Shown here: piece after piece, positions 3,270 through 38,402 of the stretch
Layout of the letters: each line of letters begins with the position of its first letter
Numbering within the stretch: the first letter of the stretch is position 1
DNA from: Planctomycetota bacterium
GTDB lineage: Bacteria > Planctomycetota > JAJSAM01 > JAJVHW01
DNA: 64,000 nucleotides
NCBI GenBank assembly: GCA_021776825.1
Contig: JAJFFG010000037.1
Location: 2,437-66,436 of the forward strand
Direction: 5' to 3'
The notes under the pieces: model-generated
Seen by the model: the letters and a program-made list of their open reading frames with translations, nothing else
Told to the model about the DNA's origin: nothing
The model's database searches: none
Made by a program: the position numbers and the translations under genes

Positions 3270-3289
3270 GGCTCCAAGTTACCCGCGCG

Positions 3290-5643: not shown

Positions 5644-6326
5644 TCGCGGACGGCCTCCGACGTGGCGATGGCGCCCTTTTCGAGATGCACGAGCCGATCT
5701 GCGCGCGCCGCGGCGTTCGGATCGTGCGTGACCATCACGATCGCCTTGCCGAAGTCGGCGCGGAGCCGATCCATCAGGTGCAGGATCTCCTCCGCACTCT
5801 TGGCGTCGAGGTCTCCTGTCGGTTCGTCGGCGAGCAGGAAACTCGGGTCCGTGACGATGGCGCGCGCGATGGCCACGCGCTGCTGCTGACCGCCGGAGAG
5901 TTGTGACGGGCGGTGGTCGGAGCGATCGGCCAGACCGACCACCTCGAGCGCGGTCTGCACGTGCTCGCGACGCTGGCGTCGCGAGAGCGGAGTGAGGAGC
6001 AGCGGCAGCTCGACGTTCTGTTCGGCCGTCAGGACCGAGAGCAGGTTGTAGAGCTGGAAGATGAACCCGACGTGGCGGCTGCGCCACGCGGCGAGCTCGG
6101 CGGGCGAGCGACCAACGATCTCGTCGCCGGCGACCTGGATCGTCCCGGCGTCCGGGACGTCGATCCCGCCGATCAGATTCAGCAGCGTCGTCTTGCCACT
6201 GCCGCTGGGGCCCATGAGCGCGACCCACTCGCCCGCTTCGACGTCGAGGTCGAGGTCGTCGAGGACGCGTAGCTCTTGGCCGCCGCGGAAGTACGACTTC
6301 CCGACGCCGCGTGCCGTGATCAGCAT
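5640..6326 (-). CDS. ABC transporter ATP-binding protein (MacB/LolD-type)
   Basis: Walker [11 protein letters not shown]-loop, signature [14 protein letters not shown], Walker [13 protein letters not shown]-loop VTHD. 228 aa. Confidence 0.9.
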
Positions 6327-7783: not shown

Positions 7784-7899
7784 TGCCCGTCTCCCTGGTC
7801 CGACCCCGCAGGCTATCGCGCCGGCCCCCGGGGCAAGAACGCGCGAGGAGGAGGCATCACGTCCCGCAGACGGCGAGCGCGTGGTGGGAGCTACTCGGG

Positions 7900-11553: not shown

Positions 11554-11588
11554 CCCTCAGCCTCCACGTTCGGGCGTTGCCTCACTTC

Positions 11589-13610
11589 ATGCGATTCCTC
11601 CCCGCTGCTCTGAGCCTGGCCACGGTCGCCCTCCTCGTCGGAGCTGGGTGCGGCCCCGCCATGGGGCGAGACCGTCCCGCGCGAACCGTCGTGCCGCTGC
11701 GGGCCGAACAGGTGTCGGCGCGCGCGCGCCCACCCGTGCACCGCCGCGCCGCGCGGACGCATCCCGTTCTCGTGTGGACGTACGGCGACGACGCGCGACG
11801 CCCGGGCATGATCTCCGCCATCGAGGCCCTCGGGGCGACCGGCCTCTCGATGCCGCTCGAGCGCGATCTCGCCCGGTTCGTCCGTTCCGGTCAGGACTGG
11901 TACGAGGACGATGCGGCCGGAAAGGGCGAGCTGCACCTGAAGCGCGAACTCTGGAAGCGACACTGGGACCGGGTCTGGAGCGAACGGACGACCGCCTGGC
12001 CTCTGGAAACGGTTCGCAGTCGTCCACACTGCCTGCGCGCGCCGGAAGTGCGGGCCCAGATGATCGGTCGCGCCGTCCAGTCGGCAGCGCGTGGTGCCCG
12101 TCGCGCTGGAGGGAAGGGCGGCGCCGTCGCGATCTCACTCGCCGACGAGCCTTCGATGACCGTTCGGGCGAATCCGTTGGACTGGTGTCTCTGTCACCTG
12201 TGCTGCGTCGAGTTCAAGGACCGCATGCAGCTTCACTGGGAGGGGGATCTCGACGCCCTCAACGACGCCTGGGGCACGGAGTACCGCACGTGGGGAGCGG
12301 TGCGACCGTGGACGACCGCGGCCATTCGCGACCGCTGCCTGACGCAGCCGCCGCACACCTGGAACCTCGCACCGTGGATCCAGACGCGCGCCTTCCAGGA
12401 CGCCACATTCTCGGAGACGCTCGCGGCACTGCGCGAGGTGGTCTCGGCCGTCGGCCCGGGCGTCCCGTGCGGCATCACGGGCACGCAGGCACCGTCGGCC
12501 TTCGGCGGCTGGGACTACCGCGGCCTCACGGCCGCATGCGACTTCTTGGAGCCCTACGACATCGGACTGGCGGTCCCGGTGGCTCGCGACCTCGGTGGGG
12601 ACGGCCTGCTGCTCGGACAGACCGTGTTCCCGTCGAGCACGGAGCCGCTGCTGCCCATGTGGCGCGTCTGGCGCGGACTCGCGCGCGGCGTGGGGATGTC
12701 GATCGTCTGGTCCAGCAAGGACGCCGTGAAGTTCTCGGAGGCGGAGGGGGTGGCGCCCACGCTCTCGCGCTACGGCACCAAGATCGCCCCGGTGCTCGCA
12801 GAGATCAGTGCGAAGGACGGCGTGGGGGCGCGACTCGCGCAGGCGCGTCCCTTCTACGACGACACGCGGATCGTGATCTCCCAGCCCTCGCTCGCGATCC
12901 GATGGATGCTGGACAGCCAGGACGACGGCGATACATGGCTCCGGCGGTTCGGCAGCTACGAGGCCGACAACAGTCAGGCGATCCAGTCGCGCGCTGCTGC
13001 GTGGCGGGCTCTCGCGGGTCGCTCCCCGAAGTTCATCGACGAGCGTGACCTCGCTCGACCGGGCGCGCTCCAGGGAGTGAAACTGCTGGTCCTGCCCGAC
13101 GTGATGGCGCTCTCGGACGACACGTGCAGCGTGTTGCGCCGTTGGTCGCGTCACGGAGGCCGGATGGTCTCCGACATCCAGCCCGGCGCGTACGACGAGA
13201 TCGGCGCACCTCGCGGTCGCGCCGCGGAGCGCATGGGCGGTCGCGTCGTCGTGGATCCCGGGTTCGAGCGCCTTGGCCAGATCGCACGCGAGACCTGTGG
13301 CGAACGACGTCTCCAAGTCTCGGCGACGCTGGTCGGCTCTGGCGAGGAGGTCCCCGTCGAACTCGGCGTGCGTGTCGACGGCGACCGCTTCTACGTTGTC
13401 GCGGTCCCGGACTGGAACGTGACGATCGGCACCGGGGGCGAGGCGCGAGCGCGACTGCCGAAGGAGCCGGTGCACTTCGCCTTCTGGTTCTCGGACGGCG
13501 GCGATCGCGTGGTCCGCAACGAGCGCGCGAACCAGGACCTCGGTCCGGTCAACGAGTGGGACATCGAGACCGACGCCGCCGGCGGCGCCGTCTTCTCCTG
13601 GACCGAGTAG
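11589..13610 (+). CDS. Putative lipoprotein, glycoside hydrolase family 42-like (beta-galactosidase-like TIM barrel plus DJ-1/PfpI-like trimerisation-type domain)
   Basis: Signal peptide with Cys (LLVGAGCG) from the first ATG at 11589; the ORF caller begins at TTG 11577. Later segment LKLLVLPDVMALSDDTCSVLRRW..GGRMVSD resembles the GH42 class-I glutamine amidotransferase-like domain. Family assignment is from memory, not a search. Confidence 0.45.
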   Translation: MRFLPAALSLATVALLVGAGCGPAMGRDRPARTVVPLRAEQVSARARPPVHRRAARTHPVLVWTYGDDARRPGMISAIEALGATGLSMPLERDLARFVRSGQDWYEDDAAGKGELHLKRELWKRHWDRVWSERTTAWPLETVRSRPHCLRAPEVRAQMIGRAVQSAARGARRAGGKGGAVAISLADEPSMTVRANPLDWCLCHLCCVEFKDRMQLHWEGDLDALNDAWGTEYRTWGAVRPWTTAAIRDRCLTQPPHTWNLAPWIQTRAFQDATFSETLAALREVVSAVGPGVPCGITGTQAPSAFGGWDYRGLTAACDFLEPYDIGLAVPVARDLGGDGLLLGQTVFPSSTEPLLPMWRVWRGLARGVGMSIVWSSKDAVKFSEAEGVAPTLSRYGTKIAPVLAEISAKDGVGARLAQARPFYDDTRIVISQPSLAIRWMLDSQDDGDTWLRRFGSYEADNSQAIQSRAAAWRALAGRSPKFIDERDLARPGALQGVKLLVLPDVMALSDDTCSVLRRWSRHGGRMVSDIQPGAYDEIGAPRGRAAERMGGRVVVDPGFERLGQIARETCGERRLQVSATLVGSGEEVPVELGVRVDGDRFYVVAVPDWNVTIGTGGEARARLPKEPVHFAFWFSDGGDRVVRNERANQDLGPVNEWDIETDAAGGAVFSWTE

Positions 13611-24077: not shown

Positions 24078-24163
24078 GAGGTGCCTCCCGTGGACCACTA
24101 GTCTCGCATGCCCCTTGCGCATGTCCCTTGCGTGGGGGGCGAGGCGTGGCCGAACCTGGGCGG

Positions 24164-26125
24164 ATGGCCGAGAGCACGCAGGCGGAACAGCTCTGGCGGA
24201 AGCGCCGGACGGGTGTCTTGCTCGGGCTGCTCGGCTGGGCGGTGGGGGTGCTCCTCGGCGTCTCCGGGCTCTCCAAGTTCGTCGACGCCCCGATCTACGA
24301 CGCGTTCGCAAGGGCGAGTGACTCGATCCCGCAGGACGAGCGCGTCGGACTCGTCTACGTCGGTGACCGCGACGTGGCGCTCTATCGGGAGACGCAGGGG
24401 CGTTGGCCCTGGACCACCCGGCTGCCGCACGCGACGGCCGCCCAGGTCATGTACGAGGCCGGAGCGCTGACCGTCGGCTACGACATCATGTTCCCGGAGG
24501 GTGCGGACGAGGACTCCGACTTCGAGCTGATGGAGTCGATGGCGTTCTTCGACGCCGCAGTGCACGGCGTCCTGTTCCAGACCGCCGGCGGGACGCGCTG
24601 GTCGGACGTCGGCCTCACGGATCGGGCCCTGGAGGCCCTCGCGAACGAGGGCGCGACGTTCGGCACCGACCCCGACACGACCGGCTTGCTCGAGGGGCAC
24701 TCGCCGTCGATGCCGATCGACCTCTTCCTCGAGGGGTCCGAGGCGATGGGTCACCTGAACCCGACGCCCGACCACGACAACGCCATTCGTCGGGTGCCAC
24801 TCTTCGTCCGGAACGAGGGCCTCCTCTATCCCTCACTCGCGTTCCGCATGGCGATGGCCGCTCTCGGCGTCACGCACGAGCAGGTCACACTCGACCTCGA
24901 AGGGCGTGAGGTCCGGATCGAGGTGGCCGAAGGCGATGTGGTCCGAGTGCCGGTGGACCCGGACGGGACGATGTGGGTGCACTACGACCGGCCGATCGAG
25001 GAGCTGGAGGCGATCCTCTACAGCCGCCTCGACGACGCCGCCGCAGCCGGGAAACTCACGGGTCGCCACGTTGTGATCGGCGTCTCAGTGACCGGGTCCC
25101 GTGATGCCTGGCGCACACCGATGGGCGTCCAATGCCCGGGGTTTCTGATCCACGGACAGATCCTCGAGAACGTCCTCACGCGACGCTTCATGACGGCGAT
25201 CCAGCCCGATACCTACCCGACCGGATCGTCGGAGCTGCTCGTGCACGTCTGCGTGCTGCTCGGATGCGTCCTGCTCGGTGTGATTGCTGCGTCCGTCGAG
25301 CCACGTTTCGGGTGGAGCGCCACCCTCGTGCTCGGCGCCGGGCCCCTCGTGCTCGGTTACGTGCTCTTGACCCGCATGGACATCTGGCTGACCCCCGCGA
25401 CCTCGACGTTCGCGCTGTTCGGATCAGGATTCCTCGGCGTCGGCTACCACCAGATCATGCAGGCGCGCGAGCGCCGTCGCATCCGCGGGATCTATGAGCG
25501 CTACCTGTCGCCGCAGGTGCTGGCGCGCGTCATCGACGACCCGACGCTGATGCAGCTCGGCGGGGCCCGCAAGGAGCTGTCCGTGTTCTTCTCGGACATC
25601 CGCGGATTCACGTCGTTCTCCGAGTCCGTCGAGCCGGAGGAACTCACTGAGCGGCTGAACGAGTACTACACGGCGATGATCGACGTCGTCCACGCACACG
25701 AGGGCACGGTCGACAAACTCATCGGCGACAGCCTGATGGTCTTCTTCGGCGATCCCGTGCCGCAGGAGGACCACGCCCTGCGGTCGGTGCGCATGGCGCT
25801 CGACATGCGCGATCGCGTCGAGGAACTCACAACCGAGTGGATTGCGCGCGGTGTGCACCCCTTCGAGGTGGGCATCGGGATCGCGACCGGCCACGTCGCC
25901 GTTGGCAACCTCGGGTCGGAGAAGTTCATCGACTACACGGTCGTCGGGCAGGTCGTGAACCTGGCTGCCAGGCTCCAGGGCGGGGCGAAGCCACGAGAGA
26001 TCCTCGTGAGCGATCGCGTGCGTGAGCTCGTGGACCACGAGATCGAGACCGAACCGTTCGGGAGTCGCGAGTTCAAGGGCATCACCAGCGAGGTCGAAGT
26101 CTTCCGTGTGGTCGGTCCGCGTTAG
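24164..26125 (+). CDS. CHASE2 sensor domain-containing class III adenylate/guanylate cyclase
   Basis: N-terminal TM, periplasmic CHASE2-like region, 3 TM helices, then cyclase catalytic domain (LSVFFSDIRGFTSFSE...KLIGDSLMVFFGDP...GIATGHVAVGNLGS). Start could also be TTG 24128. Confidence 0.8.
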   Translation: MAESTQAEQLWRKRRTGVLLGLLGWAVGVLLGVSGLSKFVDAPIYDAFARASDSIPQDERVGLVYVGDRDVALYRETQGRWPWTTRLPHATAAQVMYEAGALTVGYDIMFPEGADEDSDFELMESMAFFDAAVHGVLFQTAGGTRWSDVGLTDRALEALANEGATFGTDPDTTGLLEGHSPSMPIDLFLEGSEAMGHLNPTPDHDNAIRRVPLFVRNEGLLYPSLAFRMAMAALGVTHEQVTLDLEGREVRIEVAEGDVVRVPVDPDGTMWVHYDRPIEELEAILYSRLDDAAAAGKLTGRHVVIGVSVTGSRDAWRTPMGVQCPGFLIHGQILENVLTRRFMTAIQPDTYPTGSSELLVHVCVLLGCVLLGVIAASVEPRFGWSATLVLGAGPLVLGYVLLTRMDIWLTPATSTFALFGSGFLGVGYHQIMQARERRRIRGIYERYLSPQVLARVIDDPTLMQLGGARKELSVFFSDIRGFTSFSESVEPEELTERLNEYYTAMIDVVHAHEGTVDKLIGDSLMVFFGDPVPQEDHALRSVRMALDMRDRVEELTTEWIARGVHPFEVGIGIATGHVAVGNLGSEKFIDYTVVGQVVNLAARLQGGAKPREILVSDRVRELVDHEIETEPFGSREFKGITSEVEVFRVVGPR

Positions 26126-26223: not shown

Positions 26224-26988
26224 ATGTTCAAGCGTCTCGGCAACCTCATCCGAGGCTTCTTCGCGCTCTTCGTGGGAGACCTCGAACGGCAGAACCCCGA
26301 GGCGCTCCTCGAGGTGGAGAAGGAGAACCTTCGGACCCAGATCGCGAAGTACAACCGCGGTCTCGCCGCCCACGCGGCGCTCTGCGAGCGGCTGATCGGT
26401 CAGGTGAAGAGGCAGGAGAAGGAGCACACGCAGCTCAAGGCCAAGATCACGGCCCACCTGCGTGCCGGCAACCAGGACGCCGCCGGTCAGTACGCGCTGC
26501 GCTTCCAGGAAGTCACGCGCGACCTCACCGAGAACCGCGCTCAGCTCGACGACGCAGAGAAGACCTACAAGGAACTGACCCGCGCTCGCGACACCGCGGT
26601 CGAAGCCGCGCGCGCCAAGCTCCAGTCGCTGAAGCAGTCGATCAGCGACATGAAGGTCAAGCAGGCCACTGCCGAACTGAATGAGATGGCCTCCGGCATG
26701 ATCTCCGAGATCGGGGGCGCCGGCGACACGCTCAACCGTCTAGAGGAGATGGTCAACGAGGAGCGGGATCGCGCCGCGGGCCGCGCCCGGGTCGCGAGCG
26801 ACGCCCTCGAGATGAAGGAGATCAACCTCCAGGAGGTGGAGCGGGACGCGATGGCGCAGATGGCGCTCGCGGACTTCGCCGCCGCCGAGGGCATCTCGCT
26901 GGGCGCCGACGACGCCGCTCCGGTTGCCGACGAGCCGGCGGCCGAGGACGGTGGCAAGTCGATGGGCCCCGTCGCCGGGACCGAGTAG
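26224..26988 (+). CDS. pspA: PspA/IM30 (Vipp1/ESCRT-III-superfamily) protein
   Basis: MFKRLGNLIRGFFALFVGDLER... coiled-coil protein with PspA-like heptad pattern and acidic C-terminus. Confidence 0.8.
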   Translation: MFKRLGNLIRGFFALFVGDLERQNPEALLEVEKENLRTQIAKYNRGLAAHAALCERLIGQVKRQEKEHTQLKAKITAHLRAGNQDAAGQYALRFQEVTRDLTENRAQLDDAEKTYKELTRARDTAVEAARAKLQSLKQSISDMKVKQATAELNEMASGMISEIGGAGDTLNRLEEMVNEERDRAAGRARVASDALEMKEINLQEVERDAMAQMALADFAAAEGISLGADDAAPVADEPAAEDGGKSMGPVAGTE

Positions 26989-26997
26989 CGCGAGATC

Positions 26998-28707
26998 GTG
27001 AACGAGGCGGACGCCCCGTCGTCCACGTCGTCCACCGGGTCCAGCGGCTCCTCCGCGGCGCCGCGGCTGCCCGCGTGGGCCGCCGAGCTCTCGTCGCTCT
27101 ACGAGAGTGACGCGGCCAGCCAGTTCGTCCTGCACGGGAACGTGCACGATCGCGTCTTGCTGCCGCTCTCCGACGGCCCGGCGCTGGGCGGGATCGTCGA
27201 CTTCCTGCTCCGTGCGTTGATGCCGCGCTTCGACGTGATCCTCACGTACGACCTCGGGAACGGCATCCGGCTCGAGAAGGGCGGCGAGATCTTCGCCCAG
27301 TGGCCGAGCGGCGGGAAGGGGACGCTGCCGAAGCAGCCCCGCCCGGCGGTCGAGACGCTGACGCACTACCTGCGCTATGTCGCGAACCTACACGCGCTCG
27401 GACAGAAGAGGCTCCAGGTGGGCATCGTGGTCCGGGATGCGAGTCTCGTCTGCCCGCGGACGCATGGCGCCACGAGCCACGACCAGGCCGCGACGGCGTT
27501 GCTGCTGCGTGACTGGTCGTCCGACTCGGCCTTCGCCGACATGCCTCTCGCGACGTTCCTGCTCGCCGAGAACCTGAATGACCTCCATCCGATCGTGGCG
27601 GCCAACGGCCGCGCCGCGACGCTCGAGGTGCCGCTGCCCGCGGCGAGCGAACTGGCGGACGGCCTCGGCCTGCTCGCCCCGGGGTTCCCGCGCGCTCTCG
27701 TCAAGTACGCCGACGGTCTCGACGATCTCGCCGCGCAATTGGTCGGCGCGTCGCTGGGCGCCGTCGAGTCGCTCCTCCACATGCACGAGCATCGCGGCGA
27801 GTCGCTCGACGACGGGGACCTCGCGGAACTGAAGAAGGCGCTCGTCGAGAAGGACACCGGAGGGCTCATCGAGTTCGTCGAGTCCACGCGGACGCTCGAC
27901 GACTTCCGCGGCCAGGATCACGTTCGCGACTGGCTGCGAGACGACATCGCGCTGTGGCGCCAGGGCGAACTCGGCGCACTCCCGATGGGCTACCTGCTCT
28001 GCGGCCCCGTGGGCACGGGCAAGACGTTCCTCGTCAAGTGCCTGGCAGGAGAGGCGGGCGTGCCGGTCGTGCGCATCCGCAACTTCCGCGACAAGTGGAT
28101 CGGCAGCACGGAAGGCAACCTCGAGACGATCTTCCGGCTTCTGCACGCCCTCGGCCGCTGCTTCGTGTTCGTGGACGAGGCCGACCAAGCGCTCGGCCGC
28201 CGCGGACAGTCGAGCGGCGACTCGGGGCTCTCGGGTCGCATCTACTCGATGATCGCGCAGGAGATGAGCAACCCGGAGAACCGGGGGCGCATCGTCTGGG
28301 TCCTCGCGTCGAGCCGACCGGATCTGATCGAGGTCGATCTGAAGCGTCCCGGTCGCGTCGACGTCCGCATCCCACTGTTCCCGACGACCGACCCGGCGAC
28401 GGCCGCCGATCTCCTGTCCGCGCTGTGTCGTCGCCAACACGTCGATGTCAGCGCCGCGGACCTGGAGCCGCTGCATGCCGTGCTCCCCGATCTGCTGACC
28501 CCGGGTGCCGCCGAGGCCCTCGCGGTCAAGACGTACCGCGCGATGCGCACCCGTGGACTGGCGCCGATCGACGCGCTGCGTGAGTGTCTCGACGGCTACC
28601 AGAGCCCGGTCCCCGAGGCTGTGTTGGAAGCCCAGATCCGGCTCGCGCTGGCCGAGGCAAGTGACCTCGATCTCGTTCCGAAGGCGATCCGCGAGCGGTT
28701 CGCGTAG
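26998..28707 (+). CDS. Classical-clade AAA+ ATPase with ~300-aa N-terminal domain of unknown function, co-operonic with pspA
   Basis: GTG start 9 bp after the pspA stop. Walker A LLCGPVGTGKTFLV, Walker B FVFVDEADQ, second-region-of-homology SRPDLIEVDLKRPGRVDVRIPL. Confidence 0.8.
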   Translation: MNEADAPSSTSSTGSSGSSAAPRLPAWAAELSSLYESDAASQFVLHGNVHDRVLLPLSDGPALGGIVDFLLRALMPRFDVILTYDLGNGIRLEKGGEIFAQWPSGGKGTLPKQPRPAVETLTHYLRYVANLHALGQKRLQVGIVVRDASLVCPRTHGATSHDQAATALLLRDWSSDSAFADMPLATFLLAENLNDLHPIVAANGRAATLEVPLPAASELADGLGLLAPGFPRALVKYADGLDDLAAQLVGASLGAVESLLHMHEHRGESLDDGDLAELKKALVEKDTGGLIEFVESTRTLDDFRGQDHVRDWLRDDIALWRQGELGALPMGYLLCGPVGTGKTFLVKCLAGEAGVPVVRIRNFRDKWIGSTEGNLETIFRLLHALGRCFVFVDEADQALGRRGQSSGDSGLSGRIYSMIAQEMSNPENRGRIVWVLASSRPDLIEVDLKRPGRVDVRIPLFPTTDPATAADLLSALCRRQHVDVSAADLEPLHAVLPDLLTPGAAEALAVKTYRAMRTRGLAPIDALRECLDGYQSPVPEAVLEAQIRLALAEASDLDLVPKAIRERFA

Positions 28708-28729
28708 GCCGGGTTGCGCCCCGCCCGTT

Positions 28730-29260
28730 GCGGTGGCTCGGTGATGTCGCGTGGGTGGCGCTCGGCGTGCGATGGCGGTCGTCCGGACGGCCATCGGTCG
28801 ACGGCGCACGTCTCCTCGGGACCCTCCGGGACGACGGCTGCGACGGATCTCGCCCGGAGCCGTCCGACCCCCCGGCGTCGTTCGCTGACCGCCATCCACC
28901 CGCCTGGTCCGAGCACCGCGTGTCGGCGGGGCGGACCAGGGGGCCCGTCCCTACGGCGCCGTAGCAACAGCGATCGCGTGGGGCTGGCGGCGGCGAGATC
29001 GGTCCGGAGCCCCACCCGGGGCGGGGCGGTTGCGCGTCAGCGCAAGCGCCATGACGCGGGGAATGAGGCCACGCAGGGGTGCGGCCGACGGGGTGGCACT
29101 CGCGTGAGAGCCCTCGCACCCGCGGAGCCGACCAGAAAGATGGGAGGCGCGGCGATTGCCGCACGCCCCGATCTACGTCACCAACCAATCGCTCTGCAAT
29201 CGACGTGCCCCCCCCCCCGGCGGGGCGAATCAGGAGATCCGCCCGTACGCGGCCTTGGGG
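28730..29260. repeat. Composite palindromic repeat cluster (REP/MITE-like family), upstream flank of the flotillin block
   Basis: Contains ggcggggcggaccagggggcccgtccctacggcgccgtag, ~250 bp ~85-90% identical to 38700-38960 (…ggttgcgcgtcagcgcaagcgcc.tgacgcgggg.atgaggccacgca.gg.tgcg.ccgacgggg…ctcg.gtgagag.…gcagccgcggagccgaccag.aa..atgggaggcgcggcgattgc…), and ggcggggcgaatcaggagatccgcccgtacg. Confidence 0.85.
29208..29218. repeat. Homopolymeric C11 tract in intergenic DNA 87 bp upstream of the alpha/beta hydrolase start
   Basis: gtgccccccccccccggcgggg, counted directly. Confidence 0.9.
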
Positions 29261-29304
29261 CAGGCGACACGAGCGACGTGTCCACACGCTAGCCTCCATC
29301 CCTG

Positions 29305-30274: not shown

Positions 30275-30997
30275 ATGAGGGTGATGCAAGGCTTCCTGGA
30301 GTCGATCGTGGCGTTCCCGACGGTGGTCTTCACCGTTCTGATGGGGATCGCGCTGCTCTTCTGGGCTGTGTCGATGCTCGGCGGGATCGATCTCGACGGC
30401 TTCGACGTCGATCTGGACGCCGACATCGACCTCGATGGGGATGCCGATGGCGGCGCGGCGCACACCGGACTCTTGGATACGCTCGGCCTAGCCGGCGTCC
30501 CCATCAGCATCGCGGCGACGGCGCTCGTGTTCTTCGCGTGGGTCATCTCCTTCGTCGCCTCCAGTTGGCTCCTCCCCCTCGTCGGCGGCGGCGTGGTCGG
30601 CACACTCGCTACCGTGGGCATTGGCATCGGCTCGTTCCTGCTGGCCATCCCGCCGGCAGCGATCTGCATGCGCCCTCTGCGCGGCGCGTTCACGACGCAT
30701 CGCGCTGTCCGCAAGCGGACGCTCGTCGGGAGCATCTGCACGATCACCACTCAGCGCGTCACGGACACGTACGGCCAGGCCGAGATCCGCGACGGCGGCG
30801 CAGGCCTGCTGATGCAGGTGCGCTGCCGCGAGGGCGTCACGCTCTCGCGCGACGACACCGCCGTCGTCTGTGAGTACGACGCGGAAGAAGACATCTACGT
30901 CATCGCGCCAGCCGATCAGCTGAGTGCCGCCGACGTCGTGAACAGCGGACACGAGGCGACTTCCCGGGACTCGGGAAGCGCCCACAACGAGAGGTAG
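30275..30997 (+). CDS. YqiJ/NfeD-like inner-membrane protein (flotillin partner) with C-terminal OB-fold-like domain
   Basis: N-terminal TM helices with acidic DLDGFDVDLDADIDLDGDADG stretch, C-terminal soluble beta-rich domain. Ends 7 bp before the flotillin gene. Confidence 0.55.
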   Translation: MRVMQGFLESIVAFPTVVFTVLMGIALLFWAVSMLGGIDLDGFDVDLDADIDLDGDADGGAAHTGLLDTLGLAGVPISIAATALVFFAWVISFVASSWLLPLVGGGVVGTLATVGIGIGSFLLAIPPAAICMRPLRGAFTTHRAVRKRTLVGSICTITTQRVTDTYGQAEIRDGGAGLLMQVRCREGVTLSRDDTAVVCEYDAEEDIYVIAPADQLSAADVVNSGHEATSRDSGSAHNER

Positions 30998-31003
30998 ACG
31001 GTC

Positions 31004-32998
31004 ATGGAGACCCTCATCACGGTCGCGGTTTTCATCGGAGTCGCGTTCTTCGTCATCGTCGCGGGGCTGTTCTTCTTCTCGCGGATCTACCGCAAGGTGG
31101 ACCAGGGCAAGGCGCTGATCGTCAACACGACGGCAGCCGATCCGGACGTCACGTTCACGGGACGCCACGTGATCCCCGTCTTCCACCGCGCCGAGATCAT
31201 GGACATCTCGGTCAAGACGATCGAGCTCGACCGTCGCGGCAAGGAGGGCCTGATCTGCATGGACAACATCCGTGCGGACATCAAGGTCACGTTCTTCGTC
31301 CGTGTCAATAAGACCACCGACGACGTGCTCAAGGTCGCGCAGGCCATCGGCTGCAAGCGCGCCTCGGAGCAGAAGACGCTCGAGGACCTCTTCATCGCGA
31401 AGTTCTCGGAAGCGCTGAAGACCGTCGGCAAGCAACTCGACTTCGTCGACCTCTACACCAAGCGCGACGAGTTCCGCGATCAGATCATCCAGATCATCGG
31501 CCGCGACCTGAACGGCTACGTCCTCGAGGACGCGGCGATCGACTACCTCGAGCAGACTCCGCTGGAGATGCTCGACGGCGACAACATCCTCGACGCCGAG
31601 GGCATTCGGAAGATCACCGAGCTGACCGCGCGGGAGCACGTTCACACGAACCTGTTCCGCAACAACGAGGTCAAGCAGATCAAGAAGCAGGACGTCGAAC
31701 GCGCCGAGGCCGTGTTCCAGCTCGTGCGGCAGGAGGCCGACGCCAAGGCGAAGCAGGAGCGTGAGATCCGCACGGTGCAGGCCCGCGAGGCGGCCGAGAT
31801 CGCTCGCGTCGAGGCAGAAGAGCGCCTGAAGGCCGAGAGCGCGCGCATCAAGAGCGACGAGGACCTCGAGGTCCAGGAACAGAACAAGATGCGTCAGGTC
31901 GAGGTCGCCGAGAAGAACCGCGAGCGTGTGATCGGCATCGAGATCGAGCGCGTCCAGAGGGACCGCGATCTCGAGGCGATCTCTCGCGAGAAGGCGACGG
32001 AGCTCGAGCGCATCGCGAAGGAGAAGGCGCTGGAGATCGAGCGGAAGGCCATCCAGGAGGTCATCGCCGAGCGCGTCGCGGTCGAGAAGACCGTCGCGAT
32101 CGAGGAGGAGGCCATCAAGGAGCTGCGCGTCGTCGAGGAGGCGAGTCGCACGAAGCAGGCCACCGTCATCACGGCCGAGGCCGAGGCGCAGGAACTCCTG
32201 ATCAAGGACGTCAGGGCCGCCGAGGCGCAGGAGTCCGCCGCGAAGCACGAGGCGAGGAAGACGATCATCATGGCCGAGGCGTCGCTCGAGGCCGCGGACA
32301 AGGAAGCACAGGCGAAGATCCGACTGGCCGAGGGCATTCAGGCCCACGAGGCCGCGAGCGGGCTTGCTGCGGCGCGCGTGAAGGAGGCGGACGCCGTCGC
32401 CACGGAGAAGGCCGGCATGGCCGATGCCACGGTGCGTCGCGAGGTCGGCCTGGCCGATGCGGTCGCCATCAAGGAGAAGATGAACGCCGAGGCGTCGGGC
32501 CTCCACGAGAAGGCTGCCGCGATGAAGGAACTCGACGGTGTGGGCCGCGAGCACGAGGAGTTCCGCATCCAGCTCGAGAAGGAGAGGGACGTCCAGATCG
32601 CGGCAATCGACGCGCAGCGGCAGATCGCCGAGGCGCAGGCCCTCACGCTGGGCGAGGCGTTCAAGTCGGCTGACATCGACATCGTCGGTGGCGACGGCCA
32701 GTTCTTCGATCGCATCCTCGGCGCCGTCGGCAACAGCAAGGCGCTAGATGGCTTCGTCAACGGGAGCGACTCGACACGCGCGCTGGTCGGTGAGTACACC
32801 GACGGCACGCGGAGTCTGCCGGCCGACCTCCGCGACGTGCTGACCAACCCCTCGGTCTCGACCGAGGACGCCAAGAACGTCACGCTGACCGCACTGCTCA
32901 TGAAGCTCATGAGCGGTGCGGATGCGGACACGCGCTCGAAGCTCGCGAAGCTTGCCGAGAGTGCGCGCGACATGGGCCTGATGGACTCGAGCAAGTAG
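31004..32998 (+). CDS. Flotillin-like SPFH/band-7 protein (YqiK-like)
   Basis: N-terminal TM, SPFH domain, very long Ala/Glu-rich flotillin repeat region (EAxxEA heptads). 664 aa. Confidence 0.85.
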   Translation: METLITVAVFIGVAFFVIVAGLFFFSRIYRKVDQGKALIVNTTAADPDVTFTGRHVIPVFHRAEIMDISVKTIELDRRGKEGLICMDNIRADIKVTFFVRVNKTTDDVLKVAQAIGCKRASEQKTLEDLFIAKFSEALKTVGKQLDFVDLYTKRDEFRDQIIQIIGRDLNGYVLEDAAIDYLEQTPLEMLDGDNILDAEGIRKITELTAREHVHTNLFRNNEVKQIKKQDVERAEAVFQLVRQEADAKAKQEREIRTVQAREAAEIARVEAEERLKAESARIKSDEDLEVQEQNKMRQVEVAEKNRERVIGIEIERVQRDRDLEAISREKATELERIAKEKALEIERKAIQEVIAERVAVEKTVAIEEEAIKELRVVEEASRTKQATVITAEAEAQELLIKDVRAAEAQESAAKHEARKTIIMAEASLEAADKEAQAKIRLAEGIQAHEAASGLAAARVKEADAVATEKAGMADATVRREVGLADAVAIKEKMNAEASGLHEKAAAMKELDGVGREHEEFRIQLEKERDVQIAAIDAQRQIAEAQALTLGEAFKSADIDIVGGDGQFFDRILGAVGNSKALDGFVNGSDSTRALVGEYTDGTRSLPADLRDVLTNPSVSTEDAKNVTLTALLMKLMSGADADTRSKLAKLAESARDMGLMDSSK

Positions 32999-33026
32999 GC
33001 GCCGGGATCGACACGGAGAGATCGCG

Positions 33027-36000
33027 GTGAGCGACGCATCTGACGGCGACACGGGCGCCCCCTCGATCGAGCGGGGGACGTACGAGGTCATCCGCGAACG
33101 GCTTCTCGGCAGCGGCCGAGAGTTGTCGCAGAAGGCCGAGGCGCTGAACGCGAGTCGGCTCGAGATGTTCGGTGGAACGCAGCTCGCCGTCAGTGGCAGC
33201 GAGCGCCTGCGGACCGAGAACAACTGCGTTCCCCGCGACATCGTCGCGATCGGGAACCGACTGCTGTTCGGCTACAACGTCTTCATCGGACTCAAGCGCG
33301 AGACGCGCGTCGATGACGTGTTCTCGTTCCAGACCGCAACGGCGCAGAACGGGACGTACGAGTTCTCGCCGGTCGAGGACGACGGCACCCCGAACCCGTT
33401 CGCTGACGAGCGCTTCCGTCACGACTTCCGGGAGCTCTACGCGTACTACAGCCAGGCGCGACTGCTCACGTTGCGCAAGGTCGACGGGAAACTGCTTGCC
33501 GTGTTCCAGGTGGGCCGCAACGTCACCGACGTGAAGGGCTTCCGCTGGGCCCTCGGCGTCGACGGGTCGATCACGTACATCGACAACCAGGCCGACCGCG
33601 ATCACGGCTATCCGCCGACGCACGACTTCGAGTGGACGGAGACGTCGCGGGACGACCACGCCCTCGGCCTGCACCCGCACGTGTCCATTCTCGACGAGGT
33701 GTTCGTCGAGACCGTCGGGGGCGATCTCACGGTCAAGGTCGAGGACAACACCGCCGACGGCCTTGGCGTCTATCGCGAGTCAGTGGTCGACGAGAACCAA
33801 GGGCTCGACGACGCCTCGATTCACTACGCGAAACTCGGCAGCCTGATCCTGATCCGCTTGCTGCCGTTCCGCGAGGAGCAGTGGCGCTACCTCGTGTTCA
33901 ACACGCTGACGCAGCACGTCTCGCGCATCGACCACATCGGCCAGGCGTGCGTCCAGTTGCCCGAGGACCACGGGATCATCTTCCCGGGCGGCTACTACCT
34001 GCAGCGCGGTGAGACGAAGACCTTCGCGGCAGACATCCAGGGCATGCGGCTCGAGCGCACCGTCCGCTCGCCGAACGGCGAGGACGTGCTGTACGTCTTC
34101 TATCGCCAGGAGGACGGCGCGTACGTCCTGCTGCCCTACAACATGATCCGCAAGCAGGTCGACACACCGATCCGGTGTCACGGCTACTGCCTGTTCGAGG
34201 ACGGTCGCATGGTCGTCGTCCGGGCAGCCGGGAGCGAAGCGACGCGGGTTCATCCCATCCAGGTGTGGCAGACGCCGTTCACGGGCGACGTCTTCGCGGA
34301 CGCGCGGGCCACGGGGAACAGCTTCCTCGAGCGGGTCGGCAATGCGGATCTCGTCCGCGGGATCTCCGACTGCCTCTCCGTGCATCGCATGGTGGAGGAG
34401 CAGAAGCCGACGCTCGCGATGTACGAGGAGCTCATCGCCGAGACCTCGCGCGTCTTGGATCAGTACCACTGGCTTGGCGCGGACGACGTCGACAACCTTC
34501 TCGCGACGTTGCGCCAGGTGCGCGAGACGGCGGAGCTCGTCATCGACGAGTTCGAGAAAGTGCAGGCGCTGCGCGCCGAGGCCTCGCGCGTGTTGGCCGA
34601 GGCCGACGAGCGCGTGAAGAAACTGGTCACGCGGCTGCGGTCGGCGGGCTGGAAGGCGGTCGAGAAGTTCGTCGATGCGATGACCGAACTGCGTCGCGAA
34701 CGCGGACGGCTCATCTCGCTGCGCGACGTGCGCTACATCGACGTCGACCGAGTGACAGCGCTCGAGCAGTCCGTCATCGATCGCTTCGACGCCGTGAGTG
34801 CGAAGTCGGTGGAGTTCCTCGTCGGGGCCTCGGCGCTCGAGCCATACCTCGTGCGTGTCGCCGACATCGAGGCCGCCGTCGAGACCGTCGCCAAGGTCAC
34901 CGAGACCGCGCCGCTGACCGAGTCGTTGAACGAGACGAGTGGCGCTCTCAACATGCTCACGGAGGTTGTTGGCGGTCTGGCGATCGACGACGCCACCGTT
35001 CGCACCTCGATCCTCGAGGCGATCAGCGAGGTGATGGCGTCGCTCAACCGAGCGCGCGCGCTGCTCCAGGCGCGTCGCCGTCAGTTGCTTCGCCAGGAGG
35101 GCGTTGCCGAGTTCGCCGCGCAGTTCTCGCTGCTTGCGCAGAGCGTCTCCGGGGCGCTCGCGATGGCGGACACGCCGGAGCGTTGCGACGACCAGCTCTC
35201 GCGCCTCATGGTGCAGCTCGAGGAGATGGAGGGGCGGTTCAGCGAGTTCGACGAGTTTCTCGAACAGCTGACGACGAAGCGCGAGGAGATCTACGAGGCG
35301 CTGGAGGGCAAGAAGCAGTCCCTCCTCGATCAGCAGCAGCGTCGTGCACATCATCTGATGCAGGCCGTCGAGCGCATCCTGGCCGGCGTGGCGCGCCGCG
35401 CGTCCGGGCTCGGCGAACAGGACGATCTGAACGCGTACTTCGCATCCGACGCGATGGTGATGAAGGTCCGCGAGATGGCGGGCCGTCTGCGTGACCTGGA
35501 CGACTCGGTGCGCGCCGACGAGGTCGAGTCACGACTGAAGTCCGCGCGCGAGGACGCCGTACGCGCGCTGCGCGATCGTCAGGATCTCTTCGAGGACGGC
35601 GCGTCCGTCATCCGCCTGGGCAAGCACCGGTTCAGCGTGAACACGCAAGCGCTCGACCTGACGCTCGTGCCGCACGACGACGGCTTGGCGCTGCACCTGA
35701 CCGGTACGGACTTCCGCGAGCCGATCGTCGACGAGACGTTCGAAGCGACCCGCGAGTACTGGGCGCAGGAACTCGTCTCCGAGACGCCGGCTGTCTATCG
35801 GTCCGAGTACCTCGCGTACTCGATCCTCGCGGCTGCCGAGACCGAGAGCGACGGGCTGTCGTTGACGCGTCTGACCGAGGCCGTCGTCGACGACGCCGCG
35901 TTGCTCGCCTTGGTCCGCGAACACGCGGCCTCCCGATACGACGAGGGGTACGAACGCGGCGTTCACGATCACGACGCTGCGGCGATCCTGTCGCGCCTTG

Positions 36001-38402
36001 TCGGGCTCTATGGGACTGCCGGGCTTCTGCGCTTCGCCCCGCACGCCCGCGCCGCGGCGTCGGTGGCATGGGCGTTCTCGCCCGCCTCGGATCGCCGCGA
36101 CAGCTTGGCGAGCCGCGCGTCGAGCCTCGCTCGGTTGCGCACGGCATTCGCGCACAGCGAGGCGATCACGTCCGTCGAGTCCGATCTCTGCCGCTTCGTT
36201 GCCGAGTTCCACTCGGAGCACGGGCTGGAACTGAACGACGGGACGGCTCGCGTGGCGGGGCGCTATCTGTTCGAGGAGCTCGCGCGGGGCACCGATCGGT
36301 TCGTCGCGAGTGGCGAGGCCGCGGCTCTGCGCGACGCCTTCCTCGCGCGCCTCGACACGCTCGGCGTGCGTCATGCGTTGACCGAGGACCTCGACGGGCT
36401 CGACGGTCGACTCGCGGAGCGCCATGCCTTGCTGACGGCGTGGATGGAGACGTGGCTGGAGGCGCAGCCGGATGCCGAGGCCTCACGCCCGGTCCTTCCG
36501 GAGTCGGTCGGATTGGTGCTCACCGACGGTGTCCTTGCTCGCGACGTGCAGAGCTCGTTGAGCACCGCCGTCGTCGAGGGCGTCCTCGGCCAGCACGCGC
36601 GGATCGACGATCGACGTCTCCCGCTGCGGCTCGACGAGTTCCTCGGGCGACTCTCCCGTTTCCTGCACGAGCGTGTGCCCGCGTACCGCGCGTATCAGCG
36701 TGTTCGGGCAGAGCTGCTCGAGCGCGAGCGCGAGCGACTGCGGATCTCGGAGTACCTGCCGCGCGTGCTGAGCTCGTTCGTGCGCAACCGCCTGATCGAC
36801 GAGGTCTACCTTCCGCTGATCGGTGACAACCTGGCCAAGCAGCTCGGAGCGAGAGGCGAGGGCAAGCGCACCGATCTGATGGGGTTGTTGCTCCTCATCT
36901 CACCGCCGGGCTACGGCAAGACGACCTTGATGGAGTACGTCGCCAATCGACTCGGTCTGGTCTTCATGAAGATCAACGGTCCGGCGCTCGGCCACGGCGT
37001 CACGTCGCTCGATCCGGCCGAGGCGCCGAGTGCGACGGCGCGGCAAGAGGTCCAGAAGATCAACCTCGCGTTCGAGATGGGCAACAACGTGCTGCTCTAC
37101 CTCGACGACATCCAGCACACGCACCCGGAACTGCTCCAGAAGTTCATCTCGCTCTGCGACGCGACACGCAAGGTCGAGGGTGTCTGGCGTGGGCGCACGC
37201 AGACGTACGACCTGCGCGGGAAGAAGTTCGTCGTCTGCATGGCGGGCAATCCCTACACGGAGTCGGGCGAGCGCTTCCAGGTGCCCGACATGCTGGCCAA
37301 CCGCGCCGACGTCTACAACCTGGGCGACGTGCTCTCCGGCAAGGACGACCTCTTCGCGCTGAGCTACATCGAGAACGCGCTCACGTCGAACCCGGTGCTC
37401 GCGCAGATCACGACGCACGATCATCGCGACGTCCACGTGCTGGTGCGGATGGCGCGTGGCGAAGAGGTCCCCGCGTCCGAGCTTCAGCACGACTACCCGC
37501 AGGTGGAGCGCGAGGAGATCCTCGCGGTGCTGCGGAAGGTCCTGCGTGTGCAGGAGGTGCTCCTCGCGGTCAATCGCGAGTACATCCGCTCCGCGTCGAT
37601 GGACGACGACTTCCGCACCGAGCCACCATTCGGGCTGCAGGGCAGCTACCGCAACATGAACAAGCTCGCCGAGAAGATCGTCGCCGTGATGAACGACGCC
37701 GAGCTCGAGGCGTTGCTCGTGGATCACTACGCCGGCGAATCGCAGACGCTCACGAGCGGTGCGGAGCAGAACCTCCTGAAACTGGCGGAGTTGCGTGGCG
37801 CGCTGACCGAAGAGCAGGCAGCGCGTTGGGACGAGATCCGCGCGGCGTTCCAGCGGCGTCAGCGGATGGGCGGAGACGACGACGATCCGGTTCTGCGGGT
37901 GACCTCGCAACTGGGACATCTCGGCGATCGCGTCGAGTCGGTGGGGGAGTCGATCCGCTCGGCGGCCGAGGCGGCGACGGAACGTCAACGCGGGTGGCAG
38001 GATGCCTTGGTCGCGCGTCGAGAGCAGACCGCTGCCGAGACCGCATTCGAGTCGGCGCTGGCCGCCGCGCAGGCCGACGATGGCGACGCGGAGCGCACGG
38101 GCGAGGCCGTCGGTCGTGCGCTCACGCCGGTGCTGGAACGGATCGCGGAGCTGGCGGCTGCGCGCCCCGAGCCGGCTCTGGACCTCGACGGTGTGGACGA
38201 CGCCGACGGCTTCGCGGCTCTGGCGACGCGCCAGGCCGAGGTCATCGAGGTCGGCCTGCTACCCGTCCTTCGTTCGCTGAACCAGAACCTCCGCGTCTCA
38301 CGCACGGTATGGGATCGACTGAACTCCGTCAGCCAGGCTCTCGCCGCCCTGGCCGGGACCGAACCGCCGGGACCGTTGCCGGAGGCGGACGACGGGACGT
38401 AG
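33027..38402 (+). CDS. Giant (1791 aa) protein with AAA_5/MoxR-like ATPase domain, co-operonic with flotillin
   Basis: GTG start 28 bp after the flotillin stop with GGAGAG SD. Walker A ISPPGYGKTTLMEY, Walker B LLYLDDIQ, FVVCMAGNPY sensor region at residues ~1240-1400. Long helical N- and C-terminal regions. No other domain recognised. Confidence 0.7.
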   Translation: MSDASDGDTGAPSIERGTYEVIRERLLGSGRELSQKAEALNASRLEMFGGTQLAVSGSERLRTENNCVPRDIVAIGNRLLFGYNVFIGLKRETRVDDVFSFQTATAQNGTYEFSPVEDDGTPNPFADERFRHDFRELYAYYSQARLLTLRKVDGKLLAVFQVGRNVTDVKGFRWALGVDGSITYIDNQADRDHGYPPTHDFEWTETSRDDHALGLHPHVSILDEVFVETVGGDLTVKVEDNTADGLGVYRESVVDENQGLDDASIHYAKLGSLILIRLLPFREEQWRYLVFNTLTQHVSRIDHIGQACVQLPEDHGIIFPGGYYLQRGETKTFAADIQGMRLERTVRSPNGEDVLYVFYRQEDGAYVLLPYNMIRKQVDTPIRCHGYCLFEDGRMVVVRAAGSEATRVHPIQVWQTPFTGDVFADARATGNSFLERVGNADLVRGISDCLSVHRMVEEQKPTLAMYEELIAETSRVLDQYHWLGADDVDNLLATLRQVRETAELVIDEFEKVQALRAEASRVLAEADERVKKLVTRLRSAGWKAVEKFVDAMTELRRERGRLISLRDVRYIDVDRVTALEQSVIDRFDAVSAKSVEFLVGASALEPYLVRVADIEAAVETVAKVTETAPLTESLNETSGALNMLTEVVGGLAIDDATVRTSILEAISEVMASLNRARALLQARRRQLLRQEGVAEFAAQFSLLAQSVSGALAMADTPERCDDQLSRLMVQLEEMEGRFSEFDEFLEQLTTKREEIYEALEGKKQSLLDQQQRRAHHLMQAVERILAGVARRASGLGEQDDLNAYFASDAMVMKVREMAGRLRDLDDSVRADEVESRLKSAREDAVRALRDRQDLFEDGASVIRLGKHRFSVNTQALDLTLVPHDDGLALHLTGTDFREPIVDETFEATREYWAQELVSETPAVYRSEYLAYSILAAAETESDGLSLTRLTEAVVDDAALLALVREHAASRYDEGYERGVHDHDAAAILSRLVGLYGTAGLLRFAPHARAAASVAWAFSPASDRRDSLASRASSLARLRTAFAHSEAITSVESDLCRFVAEFHSEHGLELNDGTARVAGRYLFEELARGTDRFVASGEAAALRDAFLARLDTLGVRHALTEDLDGLDGRLAERHALLTAWMETWLEAQPDAEASRPVLPESVGLVLTDGVLARDVQSSLSTAVVEGVLGQHARIDDRRLPLRLDEFLGRLSRFLHERVPAYRAYQRVRAELLERERERLRISEYLPRVLSSFVRNRLIDEVYLPLIGDNLAKQLGARGEGKRTDLMGLLLLISPPGYGKTTLMEYVANRLGLVFMKINGPALGHGVTSLDPAEAPSATARQEVQKINLAFEMGNNVLLYLDDIQHTHPELLQKFISLCDATRKVEGVWRGRTQTYDLRGKKFVVCMAGNPYTESGERFQVPDMLANRADVYNLGDVLSGKDDLFALSYIENALTSNPVLAQITTHDHRDVHVLVRMARGEEVPASELQHDYPQVEREEILAVLRKVLRVQEVLLAVNREYIRSASMDDDFRTEPPFGLQGSYRNMNKLAEKIVAVMNDAELEALLVDHYAGESQTLTSGAEQNLLKLAELRGALTEEQAARWDEIRAAFQRRQRMGGDDDDPVLRVTSQLGHLGDRVESVGESIRSAAEAATERQRGWQDALVARREQTAAETAFESALAAAQADDGDAERTGEAVGRALTPVLERIAELAAARPEPALDLDGVDDADGFAALATRQAEVIEVGLLPVLRSLNQNLRVSRTVWDRLNSVSQALAALAGTEPPGPLPEADDGT

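Follow-up and report, generated by a model that had tools for sequence, protein, structure and literature searches.

The window, a 64,000-nucleotide stretch of a Planctomycetota contig, carries a gene for a PspA/IM30 protein of the ESCRT-III superfamily directly upstream of a gene for a AAA ATPase. Both genes, and the features mapped within and between them, lie on the forward (+) strand. The first gene, pspA (positions 26224 to 26988), encodes 254 amino acids and extends from an ATG start codon, which we fixed by the conserved MFKRL N terminus of the protein, to a TAG stop codon. The second gene (26998 to 28707) starts with GTG and encodes a tandem classical AAA ATPase of 569 amino acids, with a dead first module (D1) and an active second module (D2). 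A 9-nt spacer (CGCGAGATC, 26989 to 26997) separates the stop codon of pspA from the start codon of the ATPase gene, and the two genes share one reading frame across it. A preliminary description of this DNA had reported the same spacing, start codon, and protein length, and these were confirmed by the list of open reading frames, by the sequence, and by an independent gene call on a public contig that carries the identical protein, which gave the same two genes. Because the gap is 9 nt, pspA and the ATPase gene are almost certainly co-transcribed.

Among the genes called from approximately 9 kb upstream to 10 kb downstream of the pair, none is of the PspB, PspC, or PspF type, in agreement with the earlier claim that this is not a PspF-ABC arrangement. 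A scan for promoters and terminators between positions 25900 and 30400 returned no match, and an Rfam search returned no RNA match. The PADLOC defense-system models gave nothing specific, only generic AAA (IetA, 31 bits) and coiled-coil matches. A flotillin/DUF3686 cluster is located downstream; it is linked to the pspA-AAA pair in 0 of 80 related loci.

The product of pspA matches the Pfam family PspA_IM30 (PF04012) with an E value of 2.9e-10 and 40.6 bits, which is above the curated cutoff of 33.9 and upholds the previous family assignment. The match spans profile positions 3 to 206 of 220, and all 35 aligned PspA homologues match the same family (best E value 9.6e-15). Comparisons of the single sequence and of a 35-sequence profile with the PDB reached no PspA/Vipp1 entry, and an hhalign comparison with E. 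coli PspA was not significant; assignment to the PspA family therefore rests on Pfam. The protein begins with a putative amphipathic helix, alpha0 (MFKRLGNLIRGFFALFV, 26224 to 26274), that is highly conserved in 63 homologues. By inspection, the N-terminal consensus MFKRLxNLIRGFFxLFV fits such a helix, and by analogy with published work on PspA/Vipp1, alpha0 is presumed to bind the membrane.

PspA proteins linked to the ATPase share a specific extension past the Pfam domain, made up of a helix, then a linker that varies, and finally a terminal motif; in the protein described here, this tail spans residues 209 to 254. The conserved C-terminal helix (AMAQMALADFAAAEGISL, 26848 to 26901), referred to here as the ALADFAA helix, carries an LA[DE][FL]AA motif that is present in 61 of the 62 AAA-linked PspA proteins, and its residues A214, L215, A216, A219, A220, and G223 are invariant. 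It is followed by an 18-residue linker of low complexity (26902 to 26955), rich in acidic residues, Ala, and Pro, whose sequence and length vary among homologues. The terminal motif, K-S-M-G-P in this protein (26956 to 26970), lies 5 residues from the C terminus. A strict terminal basic-x-M-G-P (K-x-M-G-P) motif occurs in 52 of the 62 linked proteins, with near variants in nine of the other ten, and it is kept as QKTMGP in a very distant PspA-AAA pair (L083). K-x-M-G-P is a candidate tag by which the ATPase may recognize or engage PspA. To our knowledge, the motif is unrelated to known MIM sequences.

The C-terminal half of the second protein had been described as a classical AAA module, and a Pfam match to PF00004 over residues 332 to 459 (E value 9e-24) bears this out. 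D2, including its lid, comprises residues 296 to 531 (27883 to 28590). The three motifs reported for it, GPVGTGKT, VDEAD, and RPGRVD, were verified by translation and are invariant in 54 homologues. The first is the Walker A motif (residues 336 to 343, 28003 to 28026), the second is part of the Walker B motif FVFVDEAD (residues 389 to 396, 28162 to 28185; D393 and E394 invariant), and the third belongs to the second region of homology, KRPGRVD (residues 449 to 455, 28342 to 28362), with invariant arginine fingers R450 and R453. Pore loop 1, DKWIGS (28090 to 28107), has the aromatic-hydrophobic-Gly pattern, with W367 and G369 invariant. Residues K366-W-I-G369 align with the KWVG/MWFG pore loops of the VAT and Cdc48 D2 modules, and KRPGRVD aligns with RPGRLD of Cdc48 D2. 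By its sequence, D2 is a bona fide classical-clade AAA module with an aromatic pore loop and two arginine fingers, and its invariant Walker A and B motifs, W367/G369, and R450/R453 are what a threading motor would require. A C-terminal extension follows the lid (residues 532 to 569, 28591 to 28704; Y534, P537, and Q546 invariant), with two helices at residues 540 to 553 and 562 to 568 in the structure model. In D2, an invariant Ser (LASSRPD) stands in place of the Asn that is typical of sensor 1 in this clade, and the usual DG motif between subunits is missing; these two features count against the unfoldase mechanism proposed below.

The N-terminal approximately 300 residues had been called unannotatable by eye, and they are also silent in Pfam, with no match even at E values of ≤10. 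The preliminary description placed this region where Vps4 carries its MIT domain and suggested that its structure be examined for an MIT-like fold. The structure model does not agree with that expectation: the region is predicted to be a degenerate AAA+ fold, not a three-helix MIT bundle, it has no MIT match in Pfam, and its position is not that of a Vps4-like adaptor domain. In the model, approximately 24 disordered residues alone precede D1, which comprises residues 25 to 290 (27070 to 27867) and has an alpha/beta core and a four-helix lid. The N-terminal helix of D1 (LPxWAxELxxLYES) is conserved. The sequence LHGNVHDR (27130 to 27153) follows strand beta1 of the model and occupies the P-loop position. 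It has no GK[ST], and D1 thus has no nucleotide-binding loop. Residues G47, N48, and D51 are invariant, and a Walker A lysine is found in 0 of 54 sequences. A profile-profile comparison of the N-terminal and C-terminal halves of the ATPase (hhalign) gave a topologically sensible alignment that was not significant (E value 0.19), therefore the fold was settled by structure prediction. A profile of the N-terminal domain compared with the PDB gave a marginal match to the AAA module of Rpt2 (E value 0.02).

Taken as a whole, the protein is a tandem (type II) classical AAA in which D1 is dead and D2 is active. Across the full chain, Pex1 is the best structural match, and Sec18 is matched across the full chain as well. 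All 60 of the PDB sequence matches listed for it are classical AAAs, among which the best single stretches for D2 are from the D2 modules of Cdc48 and VAT (74 and 67.5 bits). NCBIfam models rank CDC48 first (73 bits), followed by FtsH (64.5) and PAN (57), with CdvC well behind (27.6); the scores for CDC48 and CdvC are far below the respective cutoffs of 802 and 650. We detected no MIT or Vps4_C domain in the ATPase with Pfam, and there was no Vps4_C match at E values of ≤10 on residues 453 to 569. Sigma54_activat and HTH matches are likewise absent, and BLASTP against E. coli PspF revealed no similarity (E value 0.69). On these comparisons, the ATPase is an analogue of Vps4 rather than a member of its family, and it has no specific affinity to Vps4/CdvC. 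Membership in the Cdc48/p97/VAT group was also rejected, given that the tandem AAA modules are present but the N-terminal double-psi barrel is not. Like Pex1/Pex6, NSF/Sec18, Cdc48/p97/VAT, and Rix7/NVL, the ATPase has two stacked AAA modules, and in Pex1/Pex6, too, D1 is dead and D2 is active. Unlike these type II AAAs, it has no adaptor-binding N-domain, it is much shorter at 569 residues, and its D1 is entirely without a P-loop. Family members of 820 to 856 residues were considered as PspA-AAA (Rosetta-stone) fusions, but their extra 250 residues are a second dead AAA module.

We surveyed related genomes, as the preliminary description had suggested, and found the pair to be conserved. A PspA gene is located upstream of the ATPase gene on the same strand at 64 of 80 species-level loci. 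At least six phyla are represented among the linked loci, which come from Planctomycetota, Verrucomicrobiota, Acidobacteriota, Armatimonadota/Abditibacteriota, Desulfobacterota, and Gammaproteobacteria. Cultured carriers of the pair include Luteolibacter, Abditibacterium, and Acidobacteriaceae strains. The upstream PspA homologues have 43 to 66% identity (51 to 66% for full-length matches). At eight more of the 80 loci, the upstream sequence is too short for PspA to be judged, and at another eight, where the upstream sequence extends for 3.9 kb or more, there is no PspA within 6 kb of the ATPase gene; the ATPase gene can thus stand apart from pspA. In one relative, with a D1 identity of only 30%, a PspA gene still lies 15 nt upstream. 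Pairwise distances of PspA and the ATPase are correlated (r = 0.76), consistent with co-inheritance.

At 31 loci, a third gene is added that encodes a coiled-coil protein with two transmembrane segments; this gene is absent from the window. Beyond PspA and this protein, no other neighbor is conserved across the related loci. The third protein matches no Pfam family and has no significant profile similarity to PspA, and the label "divergent Snf7" that has been published for the transmembrane coiled-coil partner found no confirmation in these Pfam and profile comparisons. Instead of PspA, deeper relatives of the ATPase adjoin other coiled-coil membrane proteins, transporters, or additional genes for dead AAAs, so the substrate of the ATPase may be broader.

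A dyad of PspA and an "Inactive-Classical-AAA+Classical-AAA" protein has already been described, together with the ESCRT analogy, by Ravi et al. (mSystems 2024, PMC11237479), who also noted an optional extension by a membrane-anchored divergent Snf7 and an ABC transporter (main text, Text S2.2/Table S3). The locus studied here belongs to this dyad: a PspA gene adjoins the gene for a two-AAA protein whose N-terminal module is inactive, and the architecture, the optional transmembrane coiled-coil partner, and the proposed ESCRT-like role are the same. The extended operon of Table S3 is reproduced in a distant member (L092), where genes for SBP+OmpA, a permease, an ABC ATPase, a transmembrane coiled-coil protein, and the AAA protein occur together. 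The examples named by Ravi et al., from Clostridium (where the gene order differs, AAA then PspA) and Handelsmanbacteria, are likened to our pair by architecture. Beyond that work, we describe the PspA C-terminal tail motif, quantify the linkage, and confirm D1 structurally. In the literature, we found no experimental work on the dyad of PspA and a tandem AAA. In haloarchaeal "Halo_adaptin" loci, a PspA-like gene is likewise directly upstream of a gene for a Vps4-like, Cdc48-related classical AAA without MIT (Makarova et al., mBio 2024, PMC10936438). Those loci differ in being archaeal, in encoding a single AAA module with a VAT-N-like double-psi barrel N-domain, and in having extra winged-helix and adaptin-like genes.

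The preliminary description called the two genes an ESCRT-III/Vps4-like pair, and this may hold for function but is not supported for ancestry. Given a conserved pair and a classical AAA with a pore loop and arginine fingers, a functional analogy to ESCRT-III/Vps4 is reasonable. As in CdvB/CdvC and Snf7-Vps2/Vps4, the gene for an ESCRT-III-superfamily polymer adjoins one for a classical-clade AAA with an aromatic pore loop, and the flexible C-terminal tail of the polymer subunit ends in a short conserved motif at a position comparable to that of MIM. The ATPase differs from Vps4 in lacking an MIT domain and the signatures of the Vps4 beta-domain and C-terminal helix, and in having a tandem rather than a single AAA ring.

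We think it most likely, with modest confidence, that pspA and the ATPase gene form a self-contained two-gene module, extended to three genes in many other genomes, for the ATP-driven extraction or disassembly of PspA polymers. Put more generally, the ATPase probably remodels these polymers. A dedicated PspA subfamily member would polymerize on the cytoplasmic membrane through alpha0, and the ATPase would form a double-ring hexamer in which the dead D1 ring may serve as a scaffold or docking platform and the D2 ring would hydrolyze ATP. The ATPase would grip the flexible PspA tail, with its linker and K-x-M-G-P, and draw PspA subunits through the KWIG-lined pore, and the polymer would be disassembled, recycled, or remodeled as the outcome. 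A tandem AAA that resembles Cdc48/Pex1 and was recruited independently, not a Vps4 orthologue, would then perform the task that Vps4 carries out for ESCRT-III.

The roles might instead be reversed, with PspA as the regulator or adaptor of the ATPase, which it would hold inactive or target to damaged membrane; once membrane stress titrates PspA away, the ATPase would extract or unfold clients other than PspA, for example membrane proteins that were misinserted. We regard this as unlikely on balance. E. coli offers a precedent for PspA as a negative regulator of a AAA+ protein (summarized in PMC7619361): PspA there is functionally coupled to PspF and inhibits it, thus the direction of control could be reversed here. 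The eight loci at which the ATPase has no adjacent pspA fit this alternative, as do the membrane-associated coiled-coil proteins and transporters beside its deeper relatives. PspF, however, is a divergently transcribed AAA+ protein of the sigma-54 enhancer-binding type that carries an HTH. Neither a DNA-binding nor a sigma-54 module is present in the ATPase, which also bears no similarity to PspF, and the locus has no PspB/PspC. Moreover, a conserved, flexible terminal tail on PspA resembles an engagement tag more than a regulatory surface, and the neighborhood contains no conserved gene for a candidate client.

The ATPase could also be an assembly or priming chaperone that keeps PspA monomeric or opens it for polymerization and membrane loading, which we consider improbable. 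The genetic linkage speaks for it as it does for disassembly, and NSF/Sec18, of which Sec18 is a whole-chain structural match, return components to an assembly-competent state. Against this role, PspA and Vipp1 are reported to self-assemble without an ATPase (PMC8281802, PMC11746142). Sequence data alone do not separate the chaperone role from disassembly. A true Vps4-type (meiotic-clade) ATPase with an MIT-like ESCRT-III-binding N-domain is very improbable, since the N-domain is predicted to be AAA+ rather than a three-helix bundle, Pfam finds neither MIT nor Vps4_C, and CdvC (27.6 bits against a cutoff of 650) ranks below CDC48, FtsH, and PAN; its MIT part is already refuted. That two unrelated genes are adjacent by chance, for which nothing speaks except that both families are common, has a negligible probability and is refuted by conservation of the pair, which is linked at 64 of 80 loci in at least six phyla amid otherwise unrelated neighborhoods and is kept at 30% identity.

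Disassembly by the ATPase would bear on the way in which bacteria take apart their ESCRT-III-like polymers (PspA, Vipp1). A review states that a Vps4-like ATPase "appears absent in bacteria" (PMC7619361), and an independent bacterial ESCRT-III/Vps4-type machine, if real, would contradict this statement that PspA has no Vps4-like partner. The value of the result is tempered, since both the association and the hypothesis have been published before (PMC11237479). We tentatively propose that the PVC group, Acidobacteriota, Armatimonadota, and Desulfobacterota possess such an independently evolved machine, in which PspA would carry a K-x-M-G-P handle, a compact tandem AAA would strip subunits off membrane-bound polymers, and a membrane-anchored coiled-coil protein would be a third subunit in many lineages. 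In that event, a classical AAA would have been recruited convergently to a polymer of the ESCRT-III family. Compact, widespread, tightly linked, and with a candidate tag on PspA, it offers a directly testable bacterial counterpart.

The pspA gene (window positions 26224-26988, + strand) is followed after a 9-nt spacer, CGCGAGATC, by a 569-codon ATPase gene with a GTG start (26998-28707, + strand). The ORF table, the raw sequence, and the same two gene calls on a public contig whose ATPase is identical confirm the gene order, gap, start codon, and protein length reported in the preliminary description. The PspA protein matches PF04012 (PspA_IM30; E 2.9e-10) beyond the curated Pfam cut-off, and ATPase residues 332 to 459 match PF00004 (AAA; E 9e-24). 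The TAG stop of pspA and the GTG start of the ATPase gene lie in one reading frame, three codons apart (26986-27000), therefore read-through of the stop would yield a PspA-AAA fusion. This in-frame arrangement has a one-in-three likelihood by accident, and no natural PspA-AAA fusion was found among relatives. With just its two genes, the window pair is a clean, minimal example of a PspA/tandem-AAA module described before.

We scanned one genome per species, detected at least 546 relatives, and examined the best 80 loci. In this survey of conservation, which the preliminary description had proposed, 64 of the 80 encode a PspA homologue upstream of the ATPase gene and on its strand, with 43 to 66% identity (51 to 66% for full-length matches). 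Upstream sequence was too short to judge PspA presence at eight more loci, and eight, mostly from Verrucomicrobiales, have no PspA despite at least 3.9 kb of upstream sequence. Carriers of the pair belong to Planctomycetota, Verrucomicrobiota, Acidobacteriota, Armatimonadota/Abditibacteriota, and Desulfobacterota, with one Gammaproteobacterium. Pairwise distances of PspA and ATPase are correlated (r = 0.76). The linkage reaches deep: a PspA gene lies 15 nt ahead of one ATPase family representative (P0156) whose N-terminal module is only 30% identical to that of the window.

No Pfam family matches the N-terminal 300 residues of the ATPase, even at E <= 10. Across 54 aligned homologues, this half is nonetheless as conserved as the catalytic half, and it defines a family with 671 representatives (50% clustering). 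In AlphaFold2 models of the full-length protein (pTM 0.75) and of this half by itself (pTM 0.81), it reaches a pLDDT of about 90 and folds as five beta-alpha units that lead into a four-helix bundle. LHGNVHDR (consensus GNVxDR) occupies the P-loop position, where no aligned homologue has GK[ST], and conservation is lacking at the acidic pair of Walker B. Together, the predicted fold, the missing GK[ST], and the unconserved acidic pair identify this domain as a dead AAA module (D1); the AAA fold of the model contradicts the MIT-like adaptor suggested previously. Three longer representatives (P0211, P0238, and P0264; 820 to 856 aa) carry two dead D1-type modules ahead of the active C-terminal module (D2). 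At locus L084, a separate 275-aa gene (4181-5008) directly upstream of the ATPase gene encodes a further stand-alone dead-D1-like module; its neighbours encode FHA-domain and HEAT-repeat proteins, and no PspA is found there.

Translation places the D2 motifs GPVGTGKT, FVFVDEAD, and KRPGRVD where they had been reported, and these, together with pore-loop residues W367 and G369, are invariant across the 54 aligned homologues. The nearest sequences in the PDB comparison are the D2 modules of Cdc48 and VAT. NCBIfam ranks CDC48 first (73 bits), then FtsH (64.5), PAN (57), Mpa (36.6), and CdvC (27.6), each score being far under the family cut-off. Judged by this ranking and the nearest sequences, D2 is a classical-clade AAA of its own lineage, so the earlier clade assignment stands and the proposed Vps4 affinity, given the low CdvC score, does not. 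D2 shows two small deviations: its sensor-1 residue is an invariant Ser (LASSRPD), and a two-helix C-terminal extension of 38 residues is conserved. The ATPase is not similar to E. coli PspF.

Linked PspAs run about 40 residues past the Pfam domain. The extension starts with a nearly invariant helix, ...ALADFAAxEGI.L (61 of 62), continues with a variable Ala/Pro/Ser/acidic linker of 10 to 20 residues, and closes with a basic-x-M-G-P motif 5 to 10 residues before the C-terminus. Of 62 linked PspAs, 52 carry the strict motif and nine of the remaining ten have near variants (KTMSGP, NAMGP, etc.); in the window it is K245-S-M-G-P249 (26956-26970, + strand). The PspA of the distant locus L083 ends in ...ALAKFAA...QKTMGPTQTVNA. 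A recruitment or engagement tag would be expected to take this form, a short conserved motif closing the flexible tail of a polymer-forming protein that partners a pore-loop AAA; its position is comparable to that of the MIM of ESCRT-III.

One flank of the pair encodes MoaE, ThiS, a radical-SAM enzyme, DoxX, GcpE, a FecR/FGE-sulfatase protein, and a CHASE2 cyclase; the other encodes an alpha/beta hydrolase, a YqiJ-like protein, a Band-7 protein, and a DUF3686 ATPase. As previously noted, PspB, PspC, and PspF are missing, here among the genes called within about -9 kb to +10 kb of the pair. The CHASE2 sensor fused to an adenylate/guanylate cyclase (24128-26125, + strand) ends 98 nt upstream of pspA and could in principle have a transcript or signal in common with the pair; it is not conserved there in the 80 related loci. 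The 597 nt after the ATPase gene (28708-29304) have no coding signature (flat GC3 of about 0.7-0.75, versus 0.9 in flanking genes) and no Rfam match; none of 100 shuffles matches the stability of their predicted RNA fold (z -2.95), in which the initial ~230 nt form a long imperfect hairpin. At a distance of 1.6 kb downstream from the pair, three co-directional genes (30275-38402, + strand) encode a YqiJ/NfeD-like membrane protein (YqiJ_N, weak, E 0.069), a 664-aa Band-7/flotillin-like protein (Band_7 in its N-terminal part, E 5.4e-9), and a 1791-aa DUF3686 + AAA protein (E 8e-204). Such a trio has itself been described as a PspA-associated membrane-dynamics operon (PMC11237479). Because it is linked to the pair in none of the 80 related loci, its proximity in the window may reflect coincidence or be specific to the lineage.

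When neighbouring ORFs at the 80 loci were clustered all against all, one conserved partner besides PspA emerged. This third gene encodes a 255- to 286-aa protein that combines two TM helices at its N-terminus with a long coiled coil of ~190 aa, and it is present at 31 of 80 loci (including L004, L006, L009, L010, L013, L015, and L016; e.g., L006:5132-5953; also L092:3110-3955), where it separates pspA from the ATPase gene or immediately precedes pspA. Its product belongs to no Pfam family and does not resemble PspA significantly, and the window lacks a copy of the gene. Ravi et al. (mSystems 2024, PMC11237479) reported that the dyad of PspA and an inactive-AAA+AAA protein can accompany a membrane-anchored divergent Snf7 protein, which the third gene probably encodes, and also occurs with an ABC transporter and a PBPB-OmpA protein. 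The distant locus L092 reproduces their extended operon, with the third-gene family standing where their "TM+Snf7" does; on this operon description, we regard the two families as the same. The most divergent pair examined (L083; Logan SRR25158211 contig, 1-11620) lies on a low-GC contig, possibly a phage or mobile element, flanked by TerD-TerC-TerD genes and many small unannotated ORFs; the contig also holds an RNA ligase (PHA02142) and an HNH gene. Tellurite-resistance-type genes (TerB, TerC, and TerD) recur beside distant members (L092:6475-7008 and L083:1898-4200), hinting at a common membrane-stress context.

We somewhat favour a mechanism in which the ATPase would form a double-ring hexamer, the dead D1 ring serving as scaffold and dock while the D2 ring would thread PspA, beginning at its C-terminal tail, and thereby dissolve or recycle membrane-bound PspA polymers. 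In the main rival reading the logic is reversed: PspA would regulate or target the ATPase, as it does PspF, and other proteins would be the clients. This reading, which we consider unlikely, draws support from ATPase copies unlinked to pspA and from deeper relatives adjoining other coiled-coil membrane proteins, ABC transporters, TerB/TerC/TerD genes, or additional dead-AAA genes. Assembly of PspA by the ATPase as a chaperone, which sequence cannot separate from disassembly, seems quite improbable. A true MIT-bearing Vps4 orthologue and chance adjacency of the two genes are both refuted.

Ravi et al. suggested ATP-dependent membrane remodelling, likened to Snf7/Vps4. Popp et al. (2022) do not mention the ATPase, a 2025 review (PMC7619361) states that Vps4-like ATPases appear absent in bacteria, and Makarova et al. 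(2024, PMC10936438) confine ESCRT-III-plus-Vps4 systems to archaea and eukaryotes, while describing a haloarchaeal PspA-like gene upstream of an MIT-less, VAT-N-bearing ATPase. Our full-text literature search turned up no experimental work on this bacterial pairing; the module, although described, is experimentally untouched. The pairing in the preliminary description is confirmed, and its interpretation as ESCRT-III/Vps4-like is supported in part only. What is new here is the structural (predicted) confirmation of the N-half as a dead AAA, an ATPase without Vps4 affinity, the strength and depth of its linkage to PspA, and the conserved C-terminal K-x-M-G-P tail carried by linked PspAs. Tentatively, the module may be an independently evolved bacterial machine of the ESCRT-III/Vps4 type with a defined handle.
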